From: Pachysolen tannophilus NRRL Y-2460
Lineage: Eukaryota
Direction: 5' to 3'
Length of the DNA stretch: 23,387 nt
Assembly (NCBI GenBank): GCA_001661245.1
Contig: KV454011.1
Location: 709,498 to 732,884, forward strand
Every line of letters begins with the position of its first letter. The first letter of the stretch is position 1. Shown here piece by piece: positions 1,632 through 23,387 of this stretch. Both the position numbers and the translations under genes were made by a program. Under the pieces are notes generated by a model. It was not told where the DNA came from, did no database searches, and was given only the letters and a program-made list of their open reading frames with translations.

Positions 1632-4600
1632 ATGTCTGATCCATTCAAAGATCAAAACTCTAATGGTGAAAAGCATAACCCATTCCGTAATGAGTTTGAA
1701 GCATCTGGTATTTCAAGGCCAAGTAGTATATATTCCAATAGTACTTCCCCAAGACGTTATGCCAACGAATTGTACAATGAAAGCAATTGTAAGTTAAAGT
1801 TTTACTGAATAAAATTTTCAACTGAAAAAAAAAAAAAAAAAAAAAGATGAAATTACTAATAAATTTTCGAAAATTTTGATAACTAGCTGACCAAGTCCAT
1901 GGGTTCCCTACCCAAAACCAATATAGTCCAAATAAGAAAACAGCTAAATATTCTCCTGCGGTTTTCAGTAGATCGAGAGAAGGCAGAAATAATGATGACA
2001 TTTATGGATCCTCAGTTGGAAACAGTTTTATAGGTAGAGCCAGGAAAGATAGTGACGACGGCACCAGCGTTTCGGAAAGGTATAGATACACCAATATTCA
2101 TGAGTCTCCTAAAAAAAATAAGCCAACTTTCATCAATATGGATGATGACGTTATTGATACCTCAGATATTACAAGTCATTATAACGGTAAGAGTCCTTCC
2201 AGATTTGTCAGAAACACGAGTGCAAATAGCAGATCAACCAAATCATCAGATAGGGTGTTAGCACCTCCAAAACCAATTTTTTCAGCTCAAACTTTTGCTG
2301 CAGCTAATGCTTCTGGAAACTTTAGTAATCACCCAGATATAAACTCTGAAGCACGTACAAATTCTCACTATAGTGAAAAAAGCAGTATAAGTTTCAATGC
2401 CAATCAGTTTAGAATAAACGATACTGATGATGATGATAATACCACTGTCTATAGTAGTGAAAGCTTGGGTGGTGACAAATTATCCAATTCATTAAGTTAC
2501 TCGGATTATGAAGACTCTGAGTCCTTTAAACAAAGTTTAGATGGGAACATGTTTGCAGAATTACCACTGGATTATCAACCTCGGAGAAATAATCATACAG
2601 CAACTCAAAAACAATTTTATTTACAGAATGGTAACTTGATTCTTGATAATGCTGTTCCTTCTAAACTATTGAATTTCTTACCATTGAAAGATGAAAGAGA
2701 GTTCAATTATATGAGATACTCTGCGGTAACATCCGATGCAGATGACTTTTCCGCTTCAGGTTTTTCATTAAGAGCTGCAGATTTGAAAAGAGAAACCGAA
2801 ATTGTTATTTGTGTGACCATGTATAACGAAGATGCTGAAGCATTTACTAGAACAATGCACGCAATTATGAAAAATATAGTTTATTTGACTAAGAGAAAGA
2901 AATCACCAATTTGGGGAGATGATAGTTGGGAAAAAATTGTTGTTGTTATTGTTAGTGATGGTAGAGGCAAATGTAGCGAAAGTGTCTTGGAAGTTTTAAG
3001 TGCTATGGGTGTTTACCAAAGTGGGATTGCTAAGTCATTTGTTAATAATAAAGAAGTTAACGCACATTTATTTGAGTATACAACACAAATTTCCATTGAT
3101 GAAGATTTGAAATTTATGGGAAGTGAAAAGGGAATTGTTCCAGTTCAAATATGTTTTTGTTTGAAAGAGAAAAACGCTAAAAAAATCAATTCTCATAGAT
3201 GGTTATTCAACGCATTCTGCCCTGTTTTACAACCAAATGTCTGTGTTTTATTAGATGTGGGTACTCAACCTGATAGTCATGCTATTTATAACTTGTGGAA
3301 AGCATTTGACCAAGATTCAAACGTTGCAGGTACTGCGGGTGAAATTAAAACCATTAATGGTAAATATTGGAAGAATTTAATGAATCCTTTGGTTGCCTCA
3401 CAAAATTTTGAATACAAAATGTCCAATATTTTGGACAAGCCTTTAGAATCTGTATTCGGATATATCTCTGTCTTACCAGGTGCATTATCAGCTTATAGAT
3501 ATACTGCTTTAGAAAATCATGAAGACGGTACAGGTCCTTTAAACTCATATTTCAAAGGTGAAAACTTAGATACTGCTGAGAATCATGATATTTTTACTGC
3601 AAACATGTACCTTGCAGAAGATAGAATTTTGTGTTGGGAACTAGTTGCAAAGAGAAATGCCAAATGGGTCTTGAAATATGTTAGATCTGCCACAGGTTCC
3701 ACTGATGTTCCTGAAAAATTATCAGAATTCATCTCACAAAGAAGAAGATGGTTAAATGGTGCCTTCTTTGCTGCATTATATTCACAAGTCCATTTCAGGC
3801 AAATTTGGGCCACAGATCACTCATTTATAAGAAAGTTTTTTTTACATATTGAATTTATTTATCAATTTGTCCAATTATTATTCAGTTTCTTTTCGTTAGG
3901 AAACTTTTATTTGACTTTTTACTATTTGGCTGGTGCCTTAATCAATGTTATTCCTAATAATGGTGGTTATTGGATATTTCAAATCTTGAATTATTTATGT
4001 GTTTCAGATTTAGTTGGTATGTTTATGATATCTATGGGTAATAGGCCACAAGGTGCTAAGAAATTATACTTAACTTCATTGCTTATCTTAGTCTTCTGTG
4101 GTCTCTATGCATATGTTGCAGGAATATATTTCACTATATCAGCAATAAAAACTGAAACAATTGATCCTTCAAGTGATACTTCAAACTCATTTTCTGTGAT
4201 TATTGTTTCTTTGTTATCAACTTATGGGTTATATGCCTTTATGTCTTTAGCTTATATGGATTTTTTCCATATTTTTACTTCATCTTTGCAATATTTCTTA
4301 TTGTTACCCGCATATACTTGTTTATTACAAATTTATGCTTTCTGTAATACTCATGATGTTTCTTGGGGTACTAAAGGTGATAATGCTCCAGAGACTAACT
4401 TGGGTAATGCTGTCGTTAAAAAGGATAAATCCGGGAAAGAGATTGTTGAAGTGGAAATTATTGGAGACCAAATGGATATTGACAATGTTTATGATGAAGT
4501 CTTGTTCAATTTAAGATCCAGAAGACAAACACCTCTAGAATTAAGAACCAACAGTGATTCAAATGGACCAAGTCATGAAGATTATTATAGAGATGTTAGA

Positions 4601-5017
4601 ACTAGAGTCGTCTTGGTCTGGTTAGTTGCAAATTTAATCTTAATCATGACAATCACTCAAGTTTATGATGCTGATGCCATAAATACAAACAAGTATTTGG
4701 AAGTCATCTTGATTTGTGTTGCTGCACTAGCTGGGTTCAGAGCTATTGGTAGCTTTGCGTACTTGGGTCTCCTAGGTCTTAGAAATATTGACAAACAACA
4801 GACAAACAAAAAACAAACAAATAAACCTTACTTAAACACAGATATCAAAGAAAATGCAAAAGAAAAAATAGATAAAAATAATCAAAATAAAAAGTTTTTT
4901 TTTTTTTTTTTTTTACTTAACCTTAGTATTGACTATGGTTTGTGTATTCTATTTGGTGAAATAACGCTCTTTGAACTTACGATTACCTTGGATGTTTCCT
5001 CTGTTAAATTATTATAA
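1632..5017 (+). CDS. CHS2: Chitin synthase, division 1, probably class II (Sc Chs2/Ca Chs1-like); join(1632..1788,1887..5017), about 1095 aa; 3' end uncertain
   Basis: Motifs [30 protein letters not shown] and C-terminal TM helices. An upstream exon (MSDPFKDQN..., ATG at 1632) splices in frame (T+CT=Ser) into the open frame that contains the 2138 ORF. Confidence 0.88.
1789..1886 (+). other. Spliceosomal intron (98 nt) in the chitin synthase
   Basis: 5' site GTAAGT at 1789, branch-like TACTAAT at 1854-1860, 3' TAG at 1884-1886. Splicing joins two open frames in phase. Confidence 0.85.
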
Positions 5018-6561: not shown

Positions 6562-8262
6562 ATGGTATTATTTTTGAAAAGTTCATCGGCAACTGCTGCC
6601 CCTAGCGCTAATATAGCTAAAACAAATTTCTTGACAGATTTTTATGACAAATTTCCAAAGACTTATAACATGTATATCATTGCATTTGTTTCAACAATAG
6701 GTGGTTTGATGTTTGGTTTTGATATTTCATCTGTTTCATCATTTCTTTCTCAAGAGTATTATTTAAAGTTTTTTGATAGTCCCGATACTATTACCCAGGG
6801 GGGTATATCTGCTTCGATGGCTGGAGGTTCTTTTATTGGATCTCTTATAGCGTCTTATATTTCTGATCCATTAGGACGTAGAGTAAGTTTACAAGTTTCA
6901 TCTATGTTTTGGATGATTGGTGCTCTGATTCAAAGTTCTTCTCAAAATAGAGCTCAGTTGATTTGTGGAAGATTTATTTCTGGTTTTGGTATTGGAATTT
7001 CATCTTCTACAGCACCAAGTTATGTTTCTGAAATATCTCCAAAAAAAATTAGAGGTACTATGGGAGGAATATTTCAATGGTCTGTAACAATTGGAATTAT
7101 GGTTATGTTCTTTATTGGTTATGGTTGTACTTTTATTGATGGTGTCGGAAGTTTCAGACTTGCATGGGGTCTTCAAATTGTTCCAGGACTGATGTTATTT
7201 GTTGGTGTTCCCTTTTTGCCAGAATCTCCTCGTTGGTTAGCAAATCATGGACAATGGAGTAAAGCAGAAGATATTGTTGCTCGTATTAATTCAAAAGGAG
7301 ATCTTGAAGATCCAGAGGTTATTATTGAATTGAAAGAAATTAAAGAACAAGTTCTTATTGATGAAGATGCAAAAGATGTTACATTTCTGGAATTATTTAA
7401 TAAGACAAATATTAAACGTACAACAGTTGGTATGTGTGGTCAAATGTGGCAACAAATGTGTGGTATGAATGTCATGATGTATTATATTGTTTATATTTTT
7501 GAAATGGCAGGATATACCGGTAACACTAATTTAGTTGCTTCAAGTATTCAATATGTTATATTTGTTGTTATGACAGCACCTGCTTTGTTTTTCTTGGATA
7601 AAGTTGGAAGAAGACCTTTATTATTGATTGGTGCAGTATTAATGGCAGCTTTCTTATTTGCAGTTGGCGCTATCTTGGCTGTTTATTCTGAACCAACTAC
7701 AGATTTTGATGGAAATGAAAATATTACAATTTCAATTCCAGATTCAAATAAAGCTGCTGCTAAAGCTCTTATTGCATGCTCATATTTATTTGTTGCTACT
7801 TTTGGACCAACTTGGGGTCCAGGTATTTGGTTATACTGTTCAGAAATTTTCCCAAATAGAATTAGAGCTAAGGCTAATGGTGTTTCCACTTCTGTAAACT
7901 GGATTTTCAATTTTGCATTAGGTATGTTTGTTCCTACTGCTTTCCATAATATTAGTTGGAAAACTTACATGATTTTTGGTACTTTTTGTGTTGTTCTGTT
8001 TTTCAACGTTTACTTCTTATTCCCTGAAACTCAAGGTAAAACTTTGGAAGAAATAGATCAAATGTGGCAAGATGGTGTCCCAGCATGGAGAACAAAGAAC
8101 TATGTTGTCGAACTCCCACCTCTTGGCGAAGTCTTTGAAGAAAAGGCATCTGCTCGTGAAGTTGAAAATGCTTCAAGCGATGATAACGCTACAGTTGATG
8201 AAACTAGATTTAGACTTCAAAGTACAGAAAGAGTAAGAGAAGTAAATGTTGAAGAAGTCTAG
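6562..8262 (+). CDS. HGT1: High-affinity glucose transporter, sugar porter (MFS) family, HGT1-type
   Basis: GGLMFGFDISS, D.LGRR, PESPRWL, QQMCGMNVMMYY, DKVGRR and PETQGKTLEEID sugar-porter motifs. N-terminal DKFPK.YN and the QSSSQNRAQL segment resemble Kluyveromyces/Candida Hgt1. Confidence 0.9.
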   Translation: MVLFLKSSSATAAPSANIAKTNFLTDFYDKFPKTYNMYIIAFVSTIGGLMFGFDISSVSSFLSQEYYLKFFDSPDTITQGGISASMAGGSFIGSLIASYISDPLGRRVSLQVSSMFWMIGALIQSSSQNRAQLICGRFISGFGIGISSSTAPSYVSEISPKKIRGTMGGIFQWSVTIGIMVMFFIGYGCTFIDGVGSFRLAWGLQIVPGLMLFVGVPFLPESPRWLANHGQWSKAEDIVARINSKGDLEDPEVIIELKEIKEQVLIDEDAKDVTFLELFNKTNIKRTTVGMCGQMWQQMCGMNVMMYYIVYIFEMAGYTGNTNLVASSIQYVIFVVMTAPALFFLDKVGRRPLLLIGAVLMAAFLFAVGAILAVYSEPTTDFDGNENITISIPDSNKAAAKALIACSYLFVATFGPTWGPGIWLYCSEIFPNRIRAKANGVSTSVNWIFNFALGMFVPTAFHNISWKTYMIFGTFCVVLFFNVYFLFPETQGKTLEEIDQMWQDGVPAWRTKNYVVELPPLGEVFEEKASAREVENASSDDNATVDETRFRLQSTERVREVNVEEV

Positions 8263-10330: not shown

Positions 10331-13300
10331 ATGTCATCAGAGCGGTCTTTAATACAAAAATTGACCATAGAGATATGCAATAAGTTAAACATACCCAATG
10401 AACCATATAATACGGAAAATGAAATGATGGCCAATTTCATGTTGGATTTATTTGAAAAATCAACAACAAATTTGGAAGATTTTAAAACTAAATTGAAAAC
10501 TATGGGAGCGCCTGATTTGGCTGAAGATAACTTCATTCGCAAAATTAATAATTTGATCAAAAGTTATAGTTCTGATTCTCAATCTACTAAAATCAAACTT
10601 GAAAATGGTGGAACAGCAACGGCTATTTTTGATTCTTCTTTACCTAATGTGAAGACCAATTATAACGGCAAAGCACTAGATGGAATAAAGAAGGAGCATA
10701 AAACAGAAAAAGAAGAAGAAGAAGAAGAAGAAGAAGAAGATTTGATACCATGGCCAAATAATAAGAGAAAATTTAGGTCTGATTACGAGCCTCCATTTAA
10801 AAGAGAGAAGTTGGAAGAGGATGAGGAACCAGTTTTGGATAAGATATATAAAGGTAGAGTTGTTAATATGACGAATTTCGGTGCGTTTATAAGATTATAT
10901 GGGATAAAACCACTTGTTTCAAGTAGGAATAGATATATTGATGGGTTATGCCACATATCGGCAATTAGTAAAGATAGAATTGAACATCCGTCAGATGTAT
11001 TGAAAAAAGATCAAGAAGTTTATGTGAAATTAGTAGATATTCAAAGAAATGGGAAAATAAGTTTATCTATGAAAAATATAAATCAAATGAATGGGCAAGA
11101 AGAAGAAGAAGAATATCATTCGGGAGATCGTTTTAGAAGGGGAAGACAACAAGCTCCAATAGGTGAATCTGTTGGAAATTTGAAGAAAAGATTATCATCT
11201 CCTGAAAGGTGGGAAATACGACAATTAATAGCTTCAGGTGTTCTTAGCGCTAAAGATTATCCGGAATTAGCAGAAGATGTAAATGCTGCATTCCTGCAAG
11301 ACTTGGAGGATAATACAGAACTGAATGAAGACGTTGAAATTGTATTGAACACAGATGAACCTCCTTTCTTACAAGGACAGAAATATCATGCAAAAGATTT
11401 AGCTGCACCTGCAAGAATTAGGAGACCTAAAGGATCATTAAACAGAGTTGCAATATCAGGTTCTGCATTAGTAAAAGAGAGAAAGGAAAAAAAATTACAA
11501 GAGTTGAGAAGATTGGAAAAGGAAAAAAGACATAAACTGATACAGAGAAATAAAAATAGCGATGACCCATTATTGAACTATGATGATGAAGGAGATCTTT
11601 TAGAAAGAAATATTGATGAAGAAGATGAAGATGATCCTGAAAATCAAGCAAGGCTAACTTTAATTGAATCTGAATGGAAAAGGCAAATCAAACAACAGTC
11701 TTTAGGGAAAAGGACAAATTTAAGTATAAAGGAACAAAGAGAGTCTTTGCCTGTTTTCAAGATGAGATCAACTTTGGTAAAAGCAGTAAAAGAAAATCAA
11801 TTCATGGTAATTATTGGTGAAACCGGTTCAGGTAAGACAACACAAATCACTCAATACTTAGCAGAAGAAGGCTTCAATAACAACAACAAAATAATTGCTT
11901 GTACTCAACCTCGTAGAGTTGCAGCAGTAAGTGTCGCCAAAAGAGTTGCAGAAGAAGTTGGTTGTAAAGTTGGTCAGGAAGTTGGTTATACAATTAGATT
12001 TGAAGATATAACAAGTAAGGATACAAAGATCAAATATATGACTGATGGTATGCTTCAAAGAGAAGCATTAGTTGATCCAGATATGTCAAAGTATTCTGTG
12101 ATAATGTTAGATGAGGCTCATGAACGTACTATTGCTACAGATATTTTATTCTCATTATTGAAAAAAGCATGTAAGAAAAACCCAGACTTGAAAGTTATTG
12201 TTACTTCAGCAACTTTAGATGCTGAGAAATTTTCAAAATTTTTTTATGATTGTCCTATTGTGAGTATCCCTGGTAAGACATTCCCAGTTGAAGTTTATTA
12301 TACAAATGAGCCAGAAATGGATTATGTTAGTGCTTGTTTGGATGCAGTCATGGAAATCCATACTACGCAACCGAGTGGAGATATATTAGTGTTTTTAACT
12401 GGTCAAGAGGAGATTGATACGTGTTGTGAAGCGTTATTTGAAAGAACAAAGATTTTAGGAGATGCAATCCCAGAATTAATAATTTTGCCTGTTTATTCTT
12501 CATTACCATCAGAAATGCAAACAAAAATTTTTGAACCTACTCCAAAGGGTAAAAGAAAAGTTATTGTTGCTACTAACATTGCAGAAACTTCTATTACTAT
12601 TGACGGAATCTATTATGTTATTGATCCTGGATTTGTTAAATTAAATGCTTATGATCCAAAGTTAGGTATGGATTCTTTAGTGATTTCGCCTATATCTCAA
12701 GCACAGGCTAATCAAAGGAAAGGAAGAGCTGGAAGAACAGGTCCTGGAAAATGTTTTAGATTATATACTCAATCTGCATTTAATAATGAGATGATGCCAC
12801 AAACTGTTCCTGAAATACAAAGACAAAATTTATCTCGTACAATGTTGATGTTGAAAGCAATGGGGATTGATGATTTATTAAATTTTGAATTTTTAGATCC
12901 TCCTCAAACAAATACAATTTTGAGTTCTTTAGAAGAATTGTATACTATGGGTGCATTGGATAATGATGGTTATTTGACTAATTTAGGTCGTAAAATGGCT
13001 GATTTTCCCATGGATCCTGCATTATCCAAGACTTTAATTGCATCGATTGAATTTAAATGTGCTGAGGAGATTTTAACTATAGTTGCCATGCTTTCTGTTC
13101 AATCAATTTTTTATAGACCTAGAGAAAAACAAAATCAAGCAGATCAAAAAAGAGCCAAATTTAATCATCCTCATGGTGATCATTTAACACTTTTAAATGT
13201 TTATCAAATGTGGGAAAAAAATAATTTTTCCAAGAGTTGGTGTGAAGACAATTTTATTCATGAAAGATCGATGAAAAGAGCAAGAGATGTAAAGTTACAA

Positions 13301-13726
13301 TTGATTCAAATAATGAAAAAATATAGACATCCTATTTTGAGTTGTGGAAATGATACAGATAGAATTCGTAAAACTCTTTGTTCTGGATATTTTAGAAATT
13401 CAGCCAAAAAAAATACAACTGGTGGATGTTATAAGACACTTGTTGAAAAAAATACAATTTATATGCATCCATCTTCTTCATTATTTCAAAAACAAACTGG
13501 TGATTATGTCATTTATCATACATTATTATTAACTACAAAAGAATATATGCATTGTGTTACAATAATAGATCCAAAATGGTTAATCGAATTAGCACCTAAT
13601 TTCTTTAGATTTAATGATCCTCATGAGTTGAGTGATTATAAGAAAAGAGAAAGAATTCAACCGTTGTACAATAAATTTGATCCAAAACAAAGTTGGAGAT
13701 TAACAAAATCAAGAAGAAAAATGTAA
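10331..13726 (+). CDS. PRP22: DEAH-box pre-mRNA splicing helicase Prp22 (DHX8) with S1 domain
   Basis: S1 domain (IYKGRVVNMTNFGAFI...DGLCHIS), SSPERWEIRQLIASG, GETGSGKTTQ, TQPRRVAA, DEAH, SAT, ATNIAETS and QRKGRAGR motifs. Confidence 0.96.
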   Translation: MSSERSLIQKLTIEICNKLNIPNEPYNTENEMMANFMLDLFEKSTTNLEDFKTKLKTMGAPDLAEDNFIRKINNLIKSYSSDSQSTKIKLENGGTATAIFDSSLPNVKTNYNGKALDGIKKEHKTEKEEEEEEEEEDLIPWPNNKRKFRSDYEPPFKREKLEEDEEPVLDKIYKGRVVNMTNFGAFIRLYGIKPLVSSRNRYIDGLCHISAISKDRIEHPSDVLKKDQEVYVKLVDIQRNGKISLSMKNINQMNGQEEEEEYHSGDRFRRGRQQAPIGESVGNLKKRLSSPERWEIRQLIASGVLSAKDYPELAEDVNAAFLQDLEDNTELNEDVEIVLNTDEPPFLQGQKYHAKDLAAPARIRRPKGSLNRVAISGSALVKERKEKKLQELRRLEKEKRHKLIQRNKNSDDPLLNYDDEGDLLERNIDEEDEDDPENQARLTLIESEWKRQIKQQSLGKRTNLSIKEQRESLPVFKMRSTLVKAVKENQFMVIIGETGSGKTTQITQYLAEEGFNNNNKIIACTQPRRVAAVSVAKRVAEEVGCKVGQEVGYTIRFEDITSKDTKIKYMTDGMLQREALVDPDMSKYSVIMLDEAHERTIATDILFSLLKKACKKNPDLKVIVTSATLDAEKFSKFFYDCPIVSIPGKTFPVEVYYTNEPEMDYVSACLDAVMEIHTTQPSGDILVFLTGQEEIDTCCEALFERTKILGDAIPELIILPVYSSLPSEMQTKIFEPTPKGKRKVIVATNIAETSITIDGIYYVIDPGFVKLNAYDPKLGMDSLVISPISQAQANQRKGRAGRTGPGKCFRLYTQSAFNNEMMPQTVPEIQRQNLSRTMLMLKAMGIDDLLNFEFLDPPQTNTILSSLEELYTMGALDNDGYLTNLGRKMADFPMDPALSKTLIASIEFKCAEEILTIVAMLSVQSIFYRPREKQNQADQKRAKFNHPHGDHLTLLNVYQMWEKNNFSKSWCEDNFIHERSMKRARDVKLQLIQIMKKYRHPILSCGNDTDRIRKTLCSGYFRNSAKKNTTGGCYKTLVEKNTIYMHPSSSLFQKQTGDYVIYHTLLLTTKEYMHCVTIIDPKWLIELAPNFFRFNDPHELSDYKKRERIQPLYNKFDPKQSWRLTKSRRKM

Positions 13727-13797: not shown

Positions 13798-14253
13798 TTA
13801 CGATTCTAATCTTTCAATAATATGACTTTGAGTCTTAGCCCTCTGTATAACTAAATTTTTCCCAAAAAAATTATCTCCTTGTAAAGATTTCATTGCTAAA
13901 TTTGAATCCACAACATTACTAAATACAACATGTGCTTGTCCCCTCATCTTAGGAGATTTCAAAGCTATTATCTGTATCACTTCTCCATAAGTAGAAAATA
14001 ATATATATAACTGCTGTTTCAACAAATTTTTGTGTAACTTGTCATTTAAATTTTTAAGATATAAAGTATATGTATTCTCTTCCTTGTTCAATATGTCCTC
14101 ATCTTCTTGCTCATCTTGTTCTTGTTCTTGTTCCTGTTCTTGTTGTTCCAGACCTTCAATTTTTTGTTTTTTCAACAGCGGTTGAGTAGTTATATCCTCA
14201 GCATCAATTCCCAGGCCATTATCACCAACTATACTATGTTTTGCCTTTGTCAT
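13798..14253 (-). CDS. MSL1: U2 snRNP B''/U1A-family single-RRM protein (Msl1-like), 151 aa from the ATG at 14253
   Basis: TLYLKNLNDK...LYILFSTYGEVIQI...KMRGQAHVVF...FFGKNLVIQRAKTQS is the U1A/U2B'' RRM signature. A single RRM favours Msl1. The ORF-track start at 14271 is TTG; the first ATG is at 14253. Confidence 0.75.
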   Translation of the reverse strand: MTKAKHSIVGDNGLGIDAEDITTQPLLKKQKIEGLEQQEQEQEQEQDEQEDEDILNKEENTYTLYLKNLNDKLHKNLLKQQLYILFSTYGEVIQIIALKSPKMRGQAHVVFSNVVDSNLAMKSLQGDNFFGKNLVIQRAKTQSHIIERLES

Positions 14254-14752: not shown

Positions 14753-16066
14753 ATGACAACTAGTACTTATAATCAACAGTCGAATCAACACGACCCAACA
14801 TCAATTGCAGTAGCACAACAATTAACAGGTCAAAGAAGTTCATCACTGGATCAATTATCTTCGACGCTGGGGGAAGCAAATGTTGGTACAAGTGGTACAA
14901 GTGGTACAGGTTCAAGTATTGTTGGTGGGAATGTTCCCAAGACAAATAGTAGGAAACCATATACTGAAGAAGAAGTTTTTTATTTAATTGATATTTATGC
15001 CAAGTATACACAGAATGGGTTAAATATTAAACATAGATTGACTAAATTAGGTCCAAATAAGACATTAAATTCAATAATTGCAGAAGAAATGACAAAGAAA
15101 TTTCCAAATTCTTTAAAAATTTTTGATAAAGAAAATATTCGTAAAAAATTAGATGAAATTAAAAATGAATATATAATTTTCCGTTATTTATTACTTAAAA
15201 GTAGTGGGTTTGGTTGGTTAATTAATGAAGGTAGATTTAATTTAAATATTAATAATTTGGAATTTTATAAAAAAGATTTTGTTAATATGGGTGGTCAATT
15301 AAATAATAAAACTGATACTTTTAAAAAATTTTTAAAAAATGGAAATTTTTATATTTATCATTATCATGAATTAATAGGTCATAATTTAGATTTTGATCTT
15401 GATTTTAGCAAGGCAAGTGCTGAAAATGGTCTTCCATCTTCGACAAACCCAAATATTGAACCAGAGTTGATTAACCAGCAACAACAACTGCAACAACAAC
15501 ATCTGCTGCTGCTGCTGCATGATGGTAGTGCGTCATCATCGATTGCAGCTCTGGCAGCAGCAGCTGCACTGGCACATAGTGGCAGTAGCAGCCATGCTTC
15601 TAATGTGATTGCTCATAACAACACTGAAGACATTGAAGACGGAGACAACGACGACAACGATAATAACAACAACAATAACAATAATAGTAACGATAACAAT
15701 AACACCAATAATGACAATAATAACGAGAATGAAGTTGTTGGTCCATCGTCTCTGCTGCCAAGACATCAACAACAGCAAATAATCAATTCTTCTTCTTTAG
15801 CTTCTTCAAGACCTTATAAGCGTATCTTGGATAATTCCGACTTTTTAGTAGATAAGAGAATAAGGTACAATAACATTACAGAAAGAGATGAAGAAAATAC
15901 TATATTGGAATTTGTATTGAAATTGACTCAAGATGATCCAGAATTTTTCAAATTTAATCAACTATGCGCTTTAGTTGAAAATTATAGGTTGCTCAGAAGG
16001 TTAATCTTATCAAACAAATATGATTATACTCATAAGCAAAATTTGATTAAAGAATTTATTAGTTAG
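14753..16066 (+). CDS. Uncharacterised protein with a Myb/SANT-like DNA-binding domain (Myb_DNA-bind_3 / PIF-Harbinger ORF type) and Q/A/N low-complexity tracts
   Basis: 437-codon ORF from the ATG at 14753. Segment RKPYTEEEVFYLIDIY...IAEEMTKKF...DKENIRKKLDEIKNEY...LLLKSSGFGW fits the trihelix Myb-like pattern ending in SGFGW. The ORF itself is solid; the domain call is by eye. Confidence 0.7.
   Translation: MTTSTYNQQSNQHDPTSIAVAQQLTGQRSSSLDQLSSTLGEANVGTSGTSGTGSSIVGGNVPKTNSRKPYTEEEVFYLIDIYAKYTQNGLNIKHRLTKLGPNKTLNSIIAEEMTKKFPNSLKIFDKENIRKKLDEIKNEYIIFRYLLLKSSGFGWLINEGRFNLNINNLEFYKKDFVNMGGQLNNKTDTFKKFLKNGNFYIYHYHELIGHNLDFDLDFSKASAENGLPSSTNPNIEPELINQQQQLQQQHLLLLLHDGSASSSIAALAAAAALAHSGSSSHASNVIAHNNTEDIEDGDNDDNDNNNNNNNNSNDNNNTNNDNNNENEVVGPSSLLPRHQQQQIINSSSLASSRPYKRILDNSDFLVDKRIRYNNITERDEENTILEFVLKLTQDDPEFFKFNQLCALVENYRLLRRLILSNKYDYTHKQNLIKEFIS
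15476..15724 (+). repeat. Coding trinucleotide repeats (CAA, CTG, GCA, AAC/AAT/GAC) in the Myb-like gene
   Basis: Poly-Q, (CTG)5 at 15503-15517, GCN-rich run at 15545-15574, Asn/Asp tract at about 15640-15724. Confidence 0.85.
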
Positions 16067-16410: not shown

Positions 16411-18132
16411 ATGTCAATTGCATCAAGGTCATTGCAAAAAAATCTAACTGTTGGTGTGATAGGTTCAGGGATTTCTGGCTTGAGTTTCACTTATTTTCTT
16501 TCTCAATTAAGACCGGATTTAAATTTTATTGTTTTTGAGAAACAGAAAGAGGTTGGAGGTTATATTCATTCAGAAACTAAAACTTATGGTAAAGATGCCA
16601 ATTCTAGTTTGAAGAAATCAGTGATCTTGGAGAAAGGTCCAAGGACTTTAAGAGGCTCTTCAGATGGTACCTTATTAATATTGGATACATTGTTGAAATT
16701 AGGTCAAAAGGAAAAAATTTATGCAGTTCATTCCAAATCACCTGGAAATAAAAAATATTTATTGTCATATGAAAAAAATTCAAATGATGAGGCCTTAACT
16801 GAAGTTCCAAACTCTGTGGAAACTCTTTTCAAATTTTTATTTTCTTCATTAACCAAATATTCCATAATAAATATTTTCTTGGAAATGTTTAGAAAGAAAA
16901 AAAAAGATTTTTCAAAAGATGAATCTATAGAACTGTTTTTTAAGAGAAGATTTGATAAATATTTAAATGAAAATATTGCCAGTGCAATGATTCATGGAAT
17001 ATACGCTGGAGACACTTCAAAATTGAGTTTCCAGACAATAATGCCGAAACTAGCAGAATTGGAAAAAACCGATAGGTCTATATTATTAGGTTTATTAAAA
17101 CAAAACTATAAAGCTTTCACCACAAAAAAATTAGAAAAGTCAGGAAAGGAAGAATGTCAAATTGAATTGAGTAAAAATTTAAAAGATTACTCAAAATATA
17201 TTAGTAGTCCCTCAATACCATTTATAAATTTAAAGAAATTTTTGAAAAATTACCCCATTATTTCATTTAAAGAAACGGGAATCAGTATTCTAACAAAAGT
17301 TTTGTATGAAAATTTGAAAAAAAATCCTAAAGTCAAGTTTTTGTTTGAACAAGACATTGAATCCATATCGAAAAATGAAAATGGCAAATTATCCTTGAAA
17401 ACTTTGCAAAAAGTATATGAATTAGATCATATAAGATCAACGATAAATAGCCATAGCTTAGCTTCTCTAATAAGTACATCTTTATTACTGAAAGATTTGC
17501 AAAAATTGAATTATTCAGACATATTGTTGGTTAACTTGTTTATTCCCAAGAATTTGTTATATACAGAAGGTTTTGGGTATTTAGTTCCCAAATCAAGTAT
17601 CTTAAAACATAATTATCTTCTTGGTTGTATCTTTGATTCCAGCATTGAAAAACATTCATTTAGATTGTTTGAAAACAATAGGTTATTAGTAAATTTGATA
17701 AATTATCCGAAAATCAAGCAAGAAGAAATTAACTCGTTGACATATAGCGATTTTAGCAAGAAGAAGCCAGCAGATCTTGGATACACAAAATTAACATTAA
17801 TGTATGGTGGAATATATAACAAAGAAGTTTTATCTCAGTCTTATAATCAGCTTTTCAAGAAAGTCAACAAGATCCTAGAAGATCAGTTCAATATCGATTT
17901 GAATGTATATAAAGACGAAAATGGATTTATCTTGGAAAAAACAGTAATTGAAAATTGTATTCCTCAATATGAAGTTGGCTATAACGATTTATATGAAAAT
18001 GTTATGAAAAACTTGCAGTCAGAATTTGAAGGCAAATTATCTATTGGAGGAATGAGCTTTAACAAACTGAAGAGTATTGGGGTTCCTGATTGCTTTATGG
18101 ACAGTTTTGAAAGTAGCATTGAACTTAAATAG
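16411..18132 (+). CDS. HEM14: Protoporphyrinogen oxidase
   Basis: N-terminal FAD-binding VGVIGSGISGL, EK..EVGGYI, LEKGPRTLR, SAMIHGIYAGD, GFGYLVPKS, LLGCIFDS, IPQYEVGY and GVPDC motifs. First ATG is at 16411. Confidence 0.92.
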   Translation: MSIASRSLQKNLTVGVIGSGISGLSFTYFLSQLRPDLNFIVFEKQKEVGGYIHSETKTYGKDANSSLKKSVILEKGPRTLRGSSDGTLLILDTLLKLGQKEKIYAVHSKSPGNKKYLLSYEKNSNDEALTEVPNSVETLFKFLFSSLTKYSIINIFLEMFRKKKKDFSKDESIELFFKRRFDKYLNENIASAMIHGIYAGDTSKLSFQTIMPKLAELEKTDRSILLGLLKQNYKAFTTKKLEKSGKEECQIELSKNLKDYSKYISSPSIPFINLKKFLKNYPIISFKETGISILTKVLYENLKKNPKVKFLFEQDIESISKNENGKLSLKTLQKVYELDHIRSTINSHSLASLISTSLLLKDLQKLNYSDILLVNLFIPKNLLYTEGFGYLVPKSSILKHNYLLGCIFDSSIEKHSFRLFENNRLLVNLINYPKIKQEEINSLTYSDFSKKKPADLGYTKLTLMYGGIYNKEVLSQSYNQLFKKVNKILEDQFNIDLNVYKDENGFILEKTVIENCIPQYEVGYNDLYENVMKNLQSEFEGKLSIGGMSFNKLKSIGVPDCFMDSFESSIELK

Positions 18133-18753: not shown

Positions 18754-20913
18754 ATGACGACGACGAATTTTTATGATTCCAGATATGATGCAAACCCAGT
18801 TTTCACTTCAATTTTTCAAGATGATAGAAATTTTTTTGATGTTCTTGAAGGTAAAATTTTACCAATTGAAAATCAAAGGGCTTGTAGGCTTTCCAATAGT
18901 AGAGAAGAAGGGTATTCTTCAATATATGCTAATAGTATGAATGGGGGTAAGAATCAAGTATGCAGTACGATTTTGCCTCAGGTTAAGACTTTTTTCGAAT
19001 TCTTGGACAGGGCAATGGAATTTTATGGTAATAAAGATTGTTTAGGTTTTAGAAAATTCAATGAAGACACTGGAAAGTTTGATAATTTTTTTACTTTCCA
19101 ATCATACAAGACCGTTTTTAAGAGGAAAAAAGATATTGGAAGTGGTTTATGTAAAGTTTTGAATAACGTGCAAGATAAGTTCATACTTACATTATACTCT
19201 CCAAACCGTGCAGAATGGATCTTGACTGATTTAGCTTGTCACAGTTATGATATTCCAACTACTGCTTTATATGATACTTTGGGTCAAAATGCCAGTGTTC
19301 ATATTTTACAAATCACCAAGTCTCCAATTGTAGTATGTCCTAAGGATAAACTTTTAAAAATTTCTACTCTTAAAAAGAAACATCCACAAGAGTTGAAGAA
19401 TTTGTCAATTGTTGTTTCAATGGATGACTTGAAACCAAAAGAAATTGGAAATTTTCAAGAGATTTTCAATAATTTAGGTATGAAATTGTTTGATTTGAAA
19501 ACAGTTGAAAAATTAGGTGAAGAAACCCCTATTCCATATATACCACCTAGTCCTGATGGTTTATATTCAATCTGTTTTACTTCTGGTACAACTGGAGCAC
19601 CAAAAGGTGCAGAGCTTACACATAAAGGTTTAATGGCAGGAATGACTTTCTACCTCAGTAAGCTTGAGAAACCTAAATCTCATTTAAAGAATGGGGCCTT
19701 ATATTCTTTATGTTTTCTACCATTGGCACATATTTTTGAAAAAATGGGATCTTATTATTGTTTAGCTTCCGGAATTGCAATTGGGTTTCCTCATGATAAT
19801 TCCCCTTTGAAATTATTGGAGAACCTTAGAATTTTGAAACCTAACCTTCTTGTTGCAGTTCCTAGGTTATATACCAAGTTTGAACTAGCATTGAAGCAAT
19901 ACATTTCTCAAAATGATCAATTGGCTAGATTTGTTGAAAGGAAACTTTTAGCATCTAAACAAAATCAACAGCTTTTGCTGCTGGAAGATAATCTTGATCT
20001 ATATATAACTGCAGAATTGAGAAGACTCTTGGGATTTGATAATATGGACTTACTTGTAACTGGTTCTGCACCAATTAGCCCTCAAACTGTATTTTTCTTG
20101 AAAACTGTTTTAAATACAAACATTGTTCAAGGGTATGGTTGTACTGAAACGTTTGCAGGCTTGTGTTTATCTTCAAAAACCGAACCACTGCCTTTTTCTT
20201 GTGGCTACCCTGGTTGTACAGTTCAATTTAGACTTAAAGACGTTGAAGAGATGGGATACCGTTCTAGCAATGATGATAATTTTGAAGAACTTGATGAACC
20301 AAGAGGTGAACTATTGATTAGAGGTTCTCAAGTATTTGAAAATTATTTCAAGAATAAACTTGCTACAAAAGAAGCTATTGATGAGAAAAATTGGTATCAT
20401 ACGGGAGATATTGCTAAAATCGATAAAGACGGTAAGATCCATATCATCGATAGAGTAAAGAATTTTTTCAAATTGGCTCAAGGAGAATTCATCACACCAG
20501 AGAGAATTGAAAATGTTTACTTGAGTTCATGTCCCATGCTATCACAAATGTTTATCCATGGAGATTCAAAACATGATTACTTGGTATCTATAATAGGTGT
20601 CGAACACCCCTTTTTACACAAGATCTTAAAACATGAAACTCCAATTGATTTAAACTCTATCAACAAAGATAAAAAAATTAAAAAATTCATTGTTGAAGAA
20701 TTAAATAAACATGTTGGTGATAAAGGTTTACACAGTTTTGAAAAAATACATAATACTTATATTGCCCATGAACCTTTAAAATTGGAAAATAATGTTATAA
20801 CACCAACTCTCAAGATCAGAAGAAACATCGCCAAGAAGTTCTTCCTGCAAATTCTCCAAGGATTATATTCAGAAGGCAGTTTGATCAAAGATGGTAGTAG
20901 CAACAAGTTGTAA
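18754..20913 (+). CDS. FAA2: Long/medium-chain fatty acyl-CoA synthetase, Faa2-like, probably peroxisomal
   Basis: AMP-binding SICFTSGTTGAPKG, FLPLAHIFE, QGYGCTET, WYHTGDI, IIDRVKNFFKLAQGEFITPE and TPTLKIRR motifs. C-terminus LYSEGSLIK...NKL resembles Faa2 and ends in a PTS1-like tripeptide. Confidence 0.88.
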   Translation: MTTTNFYDSRYDANPVFTSIFQDDRNFFDVLEGKILPIENQRACRLSNSREEGYSSIYANSMNGGKNQVCSTILPQVKTFFEFLDRAMEFYGNKDCLGFRKFNEDTGKFDNFFTFQSYKTVFKRKKDIGSGLCKVLNNVQDKFILTLYSPNRAEWILTDLACHSYDIPTTALYDTLGQNASVHILQITKSPIVVCPKDKLLKISTLKKKHPQELKNLSIVVSMDDLKPKEIGNFQEIFNNLGMKLFDLKTVEKLGEETPIPYIPPSPDGLYSICFTSGTTGAPKGAELTHKGLMAGMTFYLSKLEKPKSHLKNGALYSLCFLPLAHIFEKMGSYYCLASGIAIGFPHDNSPLKLLENLRILKPNLLVAVPRLYTKFELALKQYISQNDQLARFVERKLLASKQNQQLLLLEDNLDLYITAELRRLLGFDNMDLLVTGSAPISPQTVFFLKTVLNTNIVQGYGCTETFAGLCLSSKTEPLPFSCGYPGCTVQFRLKDVEEMGYRSSNDDNFEELDEPRGELLIRGSQVFENYFKNKLATKEAIDEKNWYHTGDIAKIDKDGKIHIIDRVKNFFKLAQGEFITPERIENVYLSSCPMLSQMFIHGDSKHDYLVSIIGVEHPFLHKILKHETPIDLNSINKDKKIKKFIVEELNKHVGDKGLHSFEKIHNTYIAHEPLKLENNVITPTLKIRRNIAKKFFLQILQGLYSEGSLIKDGSSNKL

Positions 20914-21528: not shown

Positions 21529-23313
21529 ATGAGTCTTATCATTAGGATACTATTATGTATATTGTTAGTATCTGTGTTTTATATAGTAAGCTATACTCAT
21601 TTAATAGCATATAATAAGAAGAGGAAAAGAAAAATATTGCTGGCTTTAGGGGTACTGCTACTTTTAACTTATAATTTGAATACTATCATAGACAATGTTG
21701 AATATTATCGCTTGTCATTTACTAAATATAAAAATATTCCGGAAAGTTCACCATTGAGTATACCAGTGATAAATGCAGAATATACAAGGTATAATATTAA
21801 TGGATATTCATTTAAGGCTAATTCTATTACATCTAATTGTCAAAATTTAGAAGTTCAAAGTAATTTACAAGTCACACGCAAATATGAATTAGTTGATGAT
21901 ATGTACAGTATTAGACGTAGAATTAGTCAAATGTTATTAAAAAATAGTATGTTTGAAAATTGTTTCTTGGATGAACCTGATGAAACTGAAGAAGAGATTT
22001 TAGCTACTAAATGGTTTAGATTTGGTGGTAGCAGTGCATGGTTATCAAAATATAAAATTCAATTTTTGGTGAGTAGAATCATATATTCAAATTTAAGTAA
22101 AAAAAATGATCCAACAATGAGTGTTTTACATGTTCAAGTATATAATAGAGATTGGAGAGAATTGAAAAATCATAAAATTGAAGTTTTACAAAATGATGAG
22201 CCTTTAATTTTCCCACAAGTTTTAAATATACCTTCTTTCCAATCTCCTGCTAATAGATTTGGTCTAATGGGACCCGAAGATCCAAGAGTTATTGTAAGAA
22301 ATTTTAAAACTCCAAAAGGTGAAGAAGATCAAGAACCAATAGTGGTGTTTAATATGCTTGATGATAATATCAATAAAAAGAGAGGTATGCACATTTTTAA
22401 ACCTTTTGCTAGAGAAGATGATGAATCAAGGTTCTTATTATTAAGATTAGGTGACCTATTACCAAGAAAAATTGAAAAAAATTGGATTCCATTTTTTATT
22501 GATGATGAACAAGATGAATTCTTACACTTTATGTATTCAATTGATCCGTTGTTAATTGTCAAATGTAGCTTAACAAATGGTATGTGTTATTGGGTCTTTG
22601 GCCCAGAATTTGATAATGCTCTTCAAATTGAAGATCATAATGTTCAAGACATAGGTGCAATGAGAGGTGGTACAAATCTCATAAGGATTCCAGATTACGT
22701 TTATGATAAAAATAGATTGATTAATAGAAACAAACAATATTGGATAGGATTCCCAAGATCTCATAACGATAATTGCGGTTGTACAAAAGTTACTTATAGA
22801 CCACACATGATGATCCTTTCTAGAAATTTAAAGGATAAGACTTATAAATTAGAATATATGAGTACATTATTAGACTTTAATATGGAAGTTTTATCATGGG
22901 AAAAGGGTAAGACTGTTTGTGAAAGCGGTAAAAGTGTTATGATTCCTAATGGTATTGCATATTGGGATTTTTTGAAAGAATGGGATGATGAGGAGAAAAA
23001 AGCTACAATAAAAGATGATTATATGGGATTAATAATCTCAGAGTCTGATACAAATATTGTGTTGATTCATATAAGAGGTTTCTACTATTACGTATTGAAG
23101 ATATTGAAAAATTTGGAAATGAAAGAAGTGCTGAAAAATAGCCAATCTGGAAAATCTAAAGCAGATAAAGAAGAAGAATTAGAATTGGATTTCGACGTTG
23201 CTGAATATCAAAATAATAAAATGGTAAAGTGTGCCCTCGAAGATGCTCCAAAGTATTGTAAGATTAACGGTCTTTTGGATCTGTTAATGAAGGATAATAA
23301 AGATGACGAATAA
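21529..23313 (+). CDS. Beta-1,2-mannosyltransferase (BMT family, GT91), membrane-anchored
   Basis: Hydrophobic N-terminal segments, then KWFRFGGSSAWL...VSRIIYS, GPEDPR, EPIVVFN, IEKNWIPF, RGGT, WIGFPRSH..CGC..YRP and SVMIPNGIAYW motifs typical of Candida/Komagataella Bmt proteins. The paralog cannot be assigned. Confidence 0.88.
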   Translation: MSLIIRILLCILLVSVFYIVSYTHLIAYNKKRKRKILLALGVLLLLTYNLNTIIDNVEYYRLSFTKYKNIPESSPLSIPVINAEYTRYNINGYSFKANSITSNCQNLEVQSNLQVTRKYELVDDMYSIRRRISQMLLKNSMFENCFLDEPDETEEEILATKWFRFGGSSAWLSKYKIQFLVSRIIYSNLSKKNDPTMSVLHVQVYNRDWRELKNHKIEVLQNDEPLIFPQVLNIPSFQSPANRFGLMGPEDPRVIVRNFKTPKGEEDQEPIVVFNMLDDNINKKRGMHIFKPFAREDDESRFLLLRLGDLLPRKIEKNWIPFFIDDEQDEFLHFMYSIDPLLIVKCSLTNGMCYWVFGPEFDNALQIEDHNVQDIGAMRGGTNLIRIPDYVYDKNRLINRNKQYWIGFPRSHNDNCGCTKVTYRPHMMILSRNLKDKTYKLEYMSTLLDFNMEVLSWEKGKTVCESGKSVMIPNGIAYWDFLKEWDDEEKKATIKDDYMGLIISESDTNIVLIHIRGFYYYVLKILKNLEMKEVLKNSQSGKSKADKEEELELDFDVAEYQNNKMVKCALEDAPKYCKINGLLDLLMKDNKDDE

Positions 23314-23387
23314 ATGGACATTTCAATAAAATAATTTTTTTTTTCTTTTTTTTTTTNTTTTTTTTTTTTTTTTTTTTTTTTTTTCGC

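Follow-up and report, generated by a model that had tools for sequence, protein, structure and literature searches.

Reading of CTG codons in a 23-kb window from a Pachysolen-lineage yeast: a low-complexity tract, homologue columns and the CUG-alanine code

The window, by which we mean the whole stretch of 23,387 nucleotides analysed here, is AT-rich (G+C content of 26-35% per kilobase) and carries yeast-type open reading frames (ORFs) without introns, whose products range from a chitin synthase to a beta-mannosyltransferase (Table 1). One of these frames, ORF4, hosts a tract of in-frame CTG codons at 15488-15574, from which a reading of the letters alone (here called the sequence-only reading) had concluded that this genome translates CUG as alanine. 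In the following, we describe the tract and its host gene, the use of CTG elsewhere in the window, and the evidence from public records, homologues and published work that bears on this conclusion.

Table 1. Features of the window, with the residues found in homologues opposite CTG codons (one-letter code followed by the number of homologues) and the residues of the two P. tannophilus paralogues of the transporter.
Feature	Position	Strand	Homologue residues or remark	P. tannophilus paralogues
Chitin synthase	2138-5017		Sole CTG is codon 144, beyond the reach of the PDB alignment	
Sugar transporter, high-affinity-glucose type	6562-8262	+		
Transporter codon 122	6925-6927	+	A81/I29/V8/L1 (119 homologues)	A/A
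Transporter codon 210			L66/F23/A15	M/I
Transporter codon 276			A38/L20/K18	M/L
Transporter codon 479			M85/L34, zero A	M/M
Prp22/DHX8 helicase	10331-13726			
Prp22 codon 322			N54/R38/A9	
Prp22 codon 331			L87/E11 (118 homologues), gap-rich region	
Prp22 codon 403			K86/Q10	
Small RRM protein	13798-14253	-		
ORF4, 437 codons	14753-16066	+	12 in-frame CTGs: codons 32, 39, 246, 251-255, 267, 273, 334, 335	
CAA-rich poly-Gln stretch, one CTG (codon 246) within	15479-15501	+	CAA, period 3, 7.7 copies	
(CTG)5 microsatellite, codons 251-255	15503-15517	+	AAAAA if CUG=Ala; LLLLL or SSSSS under other codes	
Eight GCA/GCT and two CTG codons (267, 273)	15545-15574	+	10-residue Ala run if CUG=Ala	
Asn/Asp low-complexity stretch, rich in AAT/AAC/GAT	15654-15730	+	Same ORF4 linker	
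Amine-oxidase-fold protein	16411-18132	+	Best solved relatives are protoporphyrinogen oxidases	
FAA2-like acyl-CoA ligase	18754-20913			
FAA2 codon 409			Mostly gaps, dropped	
FAA2 codon 410			A18/Q16/E15/S12/L10	
FAA2 codon 479			D36/N32/E27	
FAA2 codon 698			K39/A20/E18	
Beta-mannosyltransferase (BMT family)	21529-23313	+	E=6e-93	

ORF4 is conserved at residues about 63-239 and about 377-435, and the two conserved parts are separated by a lineage-specific low-complexity linker that contains the tract. A representative search (1.84 billion) returned the gene's own public copy, a single true relative (P0243, 53% identical) and one weak match, P0246 (E=6.9e-4). P0243 and its two cluster mates, all from one related organism, align to ORF4 at 49% identity over both of the conserved parts that flank the linker, in one and the same frame; the linker of these three orthologues is long and also of low complexity (Gln/Pro-rich), cannot be aligned to that of ORF4, and offers no alignable counterpart of the tract. 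In Pfam, ORF4 matches no family at threshold, with PF12776 (Myb_DNA-bind_3) scoring 18.0 bits against a gathering cut-off of 23.6 (E=0.0059, residues 77-157), and a Myb/SANT-like domain is possible in this protein. The public copy, P0242 (436 aa), is identical to the reading of ORF4 residues 1-436 by NCBI table 26; it is without the last residue (Ser) that ORF4 encodes before its TAG (16061-16066), and the public gene model seems to stop one codon short. As a consequence of this missing residue, the protein collection does not contain the 437-residue Ala version of ORF4. That the tract might not be translated at all, being part of an intron or of a mis-called ORF, is barely conceivable: the linker's want of a counterpart in orthologues would fit such a view, but the 437 codons are open, the conserved domains on either side share one frame, the orthologues too have a long low-complexity linker at the same place, and the public gene model contains the tract.

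Within the tract, there is a lone CTG (15488-15490), the (CTG)5 repeat (15503-15517) and the run GCA GCT CTG GCA GCA GCA GCT GCA CTG GCA (15545-15574). These letters are exactly as the sequence-only reading had given them, and all eight CTGs (ORF4 codons 246, 251-255, 267 and 273) lie in the ATG-to-stop frame of 14753-16066. Tandem Repeats Finder describes 15503-15518 as CTG with period 3, 5.3 copies and 100% matches, and the repeat is a trinucleotide microsatellite of the ordinary kind, which under CUG=Ala would encode poly-Ala. The motif CTGCTGCTG has four matches in the window, every one of them inside the tract (three overlapping on the + strand at 15503-15517 and one on the - strand at 15555-15563), against an expectation of 0.02 for the window, and four matches were reached in none of 100 shuffles. 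The tract translates as LQQQHLLLLLHDGSASSSIAALAAAAALA under the standard code, as SQQQHSSSSSHDGSASSSIAASAAAAASA under table 12 and as AQQQHAAAAAHDGSASSSIAAAAAAAAAA under table 26, and comparison of the three readings confirms that the 10-residue Ala run is unbroken only if CTG is Ala. All three translations are, as sequences, plausible low-complexity stretches, and for this reason the unbroken Ala run is by itself no evidence for the code. The argument that poly-Leu would be implausible in such surroundings is no more than suggestive, and the homologue columns (see below) favour Ala over Leu weakly. The caveat attached to it, that Ser could not be excluded from the tract alone, was correct; Ser is rejected instead by the columns (log-odds of -17.2, with 0/10 columns at ≥50% Ser). 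As a basis for alanine, then, the tract had led to the right conclusion, but on its own it does not discriminate between Ala, Ser and Leu: sequence of such low complexity may raise the suspicion of an altered code, yet it cannot tell which residue is inserted. Since the orthologues give no alignable counterpart, we infer the translation of 15488-15574 as Ala from the code itself, under which the tract would form a Gln/His/Ala/Ser low-complexity linker (A QQQH AAAAA HDGSASSSI AAAAAAAAAA).

CTG is a rare codon in the window, accounting for 31 of the 517 CTN and TTR codons in the seven ORFs of at least 300 codons, and 8 of these 31 are packed into the 29 codons of the tract. Outside ORF4, 19 CTGs are spread over six ORFs (3.2 per gene), and the eight ORFs examined in the window contain 34 in total, 12 of them in ORF4. 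Ala stands beside CTG at 6 of 56 flanking positions compared to a background of 4.8%, a result that adds nothing independent because four of these six Ala flanks lie in the tract. Five sequencing runs from two studies contain the stretch, one of them possibly its source, and none of those listed is of RNA. Contigs from four runs, at 80% likeness, match repeat parts only (15140-15300 and 15464-15571), and none of those listed spans the stretch. For the CAA/CTG stretch at 15476-15520, at least eight contigs per run, representing other loci of the same organism, match with 2-8 differences, and Gln-codon/CTG repeat tracts similar to it seem to recur in the genome, as far as these matches indicate. 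The crowding of CTGs into the tract and the matches at other loci together underlie the proposal that, once CUG means Ala, slippage of CTG/CAG microsatellites gives rise to poly-Ala tracts in a novel way, with CTG being recruited preferentially into fast-evolving low-complexity linkers. We regard this proposal as unlikely; were it true, one would expect strains to differ in the length of (CTG)5 and the genome as a whole to be enriched in CTG beside GCN and CAA/CAG runs.

Set against a standard-code translation, the public copies of three of the window's proteins deviate at CTG only, and always by a change from Leu to Ala, at 20/20 codons (4/4 in the transporter, P0002; 4/4 in the FAA2-like ligase, P0122; and 12/12 in ORF4, P0242). 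This agrees with the earlier statement that the standard-code ORF track is wrong at CTG. The records of P0002 and P0242 come from NCBI, UniRef, NCBI nr and MetaClust, and the protein collection contains neither the transporter nor ORF4 in a Leu or a Ser version. Ala at CTG in these records is the annotators' choice of code and not an independent measurement. The nearest named matches of the transporter are two paralogues of Pachysolen tannophilus NRRL Y-2460 (75% identity), which lie on other large contigs, followed by proteins of Babjeviella (65%), Komagataella (57-61%), and Candida and Spathaspora (55-57%). With respect to membership in the Ala clade, the transporter matches thus place P. 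tannophilus nearest and all other named taxa at 65% or less, a ranking by identity. For FAA2, none of the matches listed exceeds 45% identity except the window's own copy, P0122, as would be expected were the window part of the single annotated genome of this lineage.

The column test covers three proteins, the transporter, FAA2 and Prp22, each of which was aligned, with CTG masked as X, to its listed homologues (119, 119 and 118, respectively; MAFFT was used for FAA2), leaving out the own copies P0002 and P0122 and the long fused Prp22 matches P0247 and P0248. Eleven CTG codons were read, of which 10 were usable, FAA2 codon 409 having been dropped (98/119 gaps); the CTGs of the BMT, PPOX, Chs and RRM ORFs (11/34) stood outside the test. 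Over the 10 columns, Codetta-like log-odds were -3.3 for Ala, -5.2 for Leu, -7.4 for Lys and -17.2 for Ser, none of them positive, so that Ala ranks first with a negative score, 1.9 nats over Leu. As a control, subsamples of 10 columns were drawn 200 times for each of 41 ordinary codons and regained the codon's own residue in 172-200 of 200 draws; ten columns therefore normally suffice, and CTG is anomalous. The nature of this anomaly is apparent from conserved positions: (i) columns with ≥80% Leu hold 0/10 CTGs compared to 88/207 ordinary Leu codons (p=0.005); (ii) columns with ≥80% Ala hold 0/10 CTGs compared to 46/122 ordinary Ala codons (p=0.011); and (iii) columns with ≥50% Ser hold 0/10 CTGs compared to 70/151 ordinary Ser codons (p=0.003). 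Columns at the 207 ordinary Leu codons have a median Leu fraction of 0.664, compared to 0.059 for those at CTG (p=0.0006); the median Ala fraction is 0.101 at CTG, below the 0.622 of ordinary Ala codons (p=0.0018), and Ser does not exceed 12/119 in any CTG column. Judged by these alignments, the window rejects CTG as an ordinary Leu codon, rejects CTG=Ser, and weakly favours Ala over Leu. The sequence-only reading had proposed a genome-wide comparison with conserved columns as a check; in the 10 columns of the window, the lead of Ala is narrow and its score negative. A window of 23 kb has too few CTGs at conserved columns for telling Ala from Leu.

Transporter codon 122 is the sole test column with an Ala majority (1/10). 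The remaining three columns of the transporter are hydrophobic, and Leu would fit them at least as well as Ala. At these three CTGs of the gene at 6562-8262 (codons 210, 276 and 479), the paralogues carry Met and Ile, Met and Leu, and Met in both copies; a single base change in ATG or TTG may have produced the CTGs, in which case they would represent Met/Leu-to-Ala replacements in membrane segments. In PDB alignments of the PPOX-like ORF, the human PPOX sequence reads S at codon 175 and A at codon 360 and shows a gap where codon 553 lies; these alignments comprise too few sequences and were kept out of the column statistics.

Evidence for the code itself is found in published work. The tRNA(CAG) of P. 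tannophilus has G3:U70 and A73, its 5,288 predicted proteins contain 16,824 CUGs (3.2 per gene), and LC-MS/MS gave 907 CUG positions fully supported by fragment ions, 97.2% of which were Ala, with deviations that matched those of the AUG control codon (PMC4937558). The authors presume that tRNA-Leu(UAG) bears a U34 modification that blocks its reading of CUG (PMC4937558). Among the yeasts of PMC4986446, 61.1% of Leu-coding CUGs are reported at highly conserved Leu positions, against zero CUGs at such positions in Pachysolen, and the avoidance of conserved columns by CTG in the window corresponds to this published Pachysolen signature. The claim that Pachysolen, Nakazawaea and Peterozyma read CUG as Ala likewise matches the Ala clade described in PMC5951914.

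Compared with the CUG=Ala code of P. tannophilus (table 26; Muhlhausen et al. 2016, PMC4937558), the window is similar in every feature that we compared, with no difference found: its CTGs are rare and avoid conserved Leu columns, its public records have Ala at CTG, its nearest named relatives are P. tannophilus proteins, and outside ORF4 it has about three CTGs per gene, as published (3.2). The standard code, in which CUG is Leu, would turn the tract into Ala/Leu-rich and poly-Leu low-complexity sequence and the Ala of the records into an annotation error. This is very unlikely, even though CTG columns are in part hydrophobic or Leu-rich (L 66/119; M85/L34; L 87/118), Leu is the second-best residue at 1.9 nats behind Ala, and AALAAAAALA is an ordinary stretch under the standard code. 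Against it stand the 0/10 CTGs at columns of ≥80% Leu where ordinary Leu codons number 88/207 (p=0.005), the placement of CTG on A81/I29/V8/L1 and on the polar columns D36/N32/E27 and K86/Q10, and the proteomic proof of CUG=Ala that is reported for the species of the nearest named relatives (PMC4937558).

Reading CUG as Ser, as in Candida (CUG-Ser1) or in Ascoidea and Saccharomycopsis (CUG-Ser2), would make SSSSS and AASAAAAASA of the tract. The CUG-Ser1 code of Candida and Debaryomyces (table 12) resembles the situation in the window in that CUG has moved off Leu in AT-rich budding yeasts that use CTG seldom and at sites of weak conservation; moreover, the surroundings of the tract are rich in Ser (HDGSASSS, HSGSSS), so that Ser is locally plausible, the window is as AT-rich as many Candida genomes, and a beta-mannosyltransferase gene is present. 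However, the CTG columns of the window are nearly free of Ser (≤12/119 in any of them, with 0/10 reaching 50%), the log-odds for Ser lie 13.9 nats under those for Ala, and the relatives are Pachysolen and not Candida, the transporters of Candida and Spathaspora being 55-57% identical against 75% for Pachysolen. The CUG-Ser2 code and the stochastic Ser/Leu decoding of Ascoidea and Saccharomycopsis (PMC5951914, PMC6041473) are likewise reassignments of CUG in budding yeasts, but they involve a different residue, of which the window gives no sign, and Pachysolen proteomics, as reported in PMC4937558, are unambiguous for Ala. We consequently give Ser almost no credence. Equally hard to credit is an ambiguous decoding, with Ala and Leu both being inserted at CUG. 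The mixture of Ala-like and Leu/Met-like positions among the CTG columns would suit it, and dual decoding does exist in a yeast, Ascoidea asiatica, which is reported to read CUG as both Ser and Leu (PMC6041473), but the 97.2% Ala at the 907 CUG positions of P. tannophilus, with deviations at the level of the AUG control, argues against it (PMC4937558).

Taken together, we consider it highly probable that the window belongs to a budding yeast of the Pachysolen lineage, most likely P. tannophilus itself or a species very close to it, in which nuclear CUG is read as alanine (table 26), and that the tract is a Gln/His/Ala/Ser linker. The original conclusion in favour of Ala is upheld by the 20/20 Ala in public copies, the P. 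tannophilus paralogues at 75% identity, and the published account in PMC4937558; the assignment rests on the identity of the organism and on published tRNA and proteomic work, and not on the tract. The phenomenon is already known, and the public annotation of these genes takes account of it. As a mechanism, we infer for this window what the literature describes: a tRNA-Ala with a mutated anticodon (CAG) would retain the alanine identity elements G3:U70 and A73, and would be charged with Ala because alanyl-tRNA synthetase, being blind to the anticodon, does not read it, with no tRNA-Leu(CAG) in competition. ARAGORN found no tRNA gene in the window. In practical terms, a standard-code translation is wrong at every CTG of the window (34 codons in eight ORFs, 12 of them in ORF4), and the CUG=Ala code (table 26) is the right choice for downstream annotation.

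Several further observations concern the neighbouring genes. For the ORF at 16411-18132, Pfam gives just 'flavin containing amine oxidoreductase', and its solved relatives, 7/7, belong to the protoporphyrinogen oxidases (best E=8e-17), which makes a HEM14-type enzyme of the haem pathway its probable product. The public model of the FAA2-like gene, P0122 (658 aa), begins at codon 62 of a 719-codon ORF and leaves out 18754-18936; as FAA2 homologues are 705-798 aa long and span 92-99% of the 719 codons, translation may in fact begin at the upstream ATG. CTG codons 38 and 43 of the beta-mannosyltransferase fall within an apparent N-terminal membrane anchor, and a T run of about 50 nucleotides (91% matches) lies at the far end of the window (23335-23384). 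In a related yeast, the longest contig given for P0367, which clusters with the ORF4 orthologue, and for P0249, the orthologue of Prp22, measures 41,027 bases in both cases, and this shared figure hints that the Prp22-ORF4 neighbourhood is conserved.
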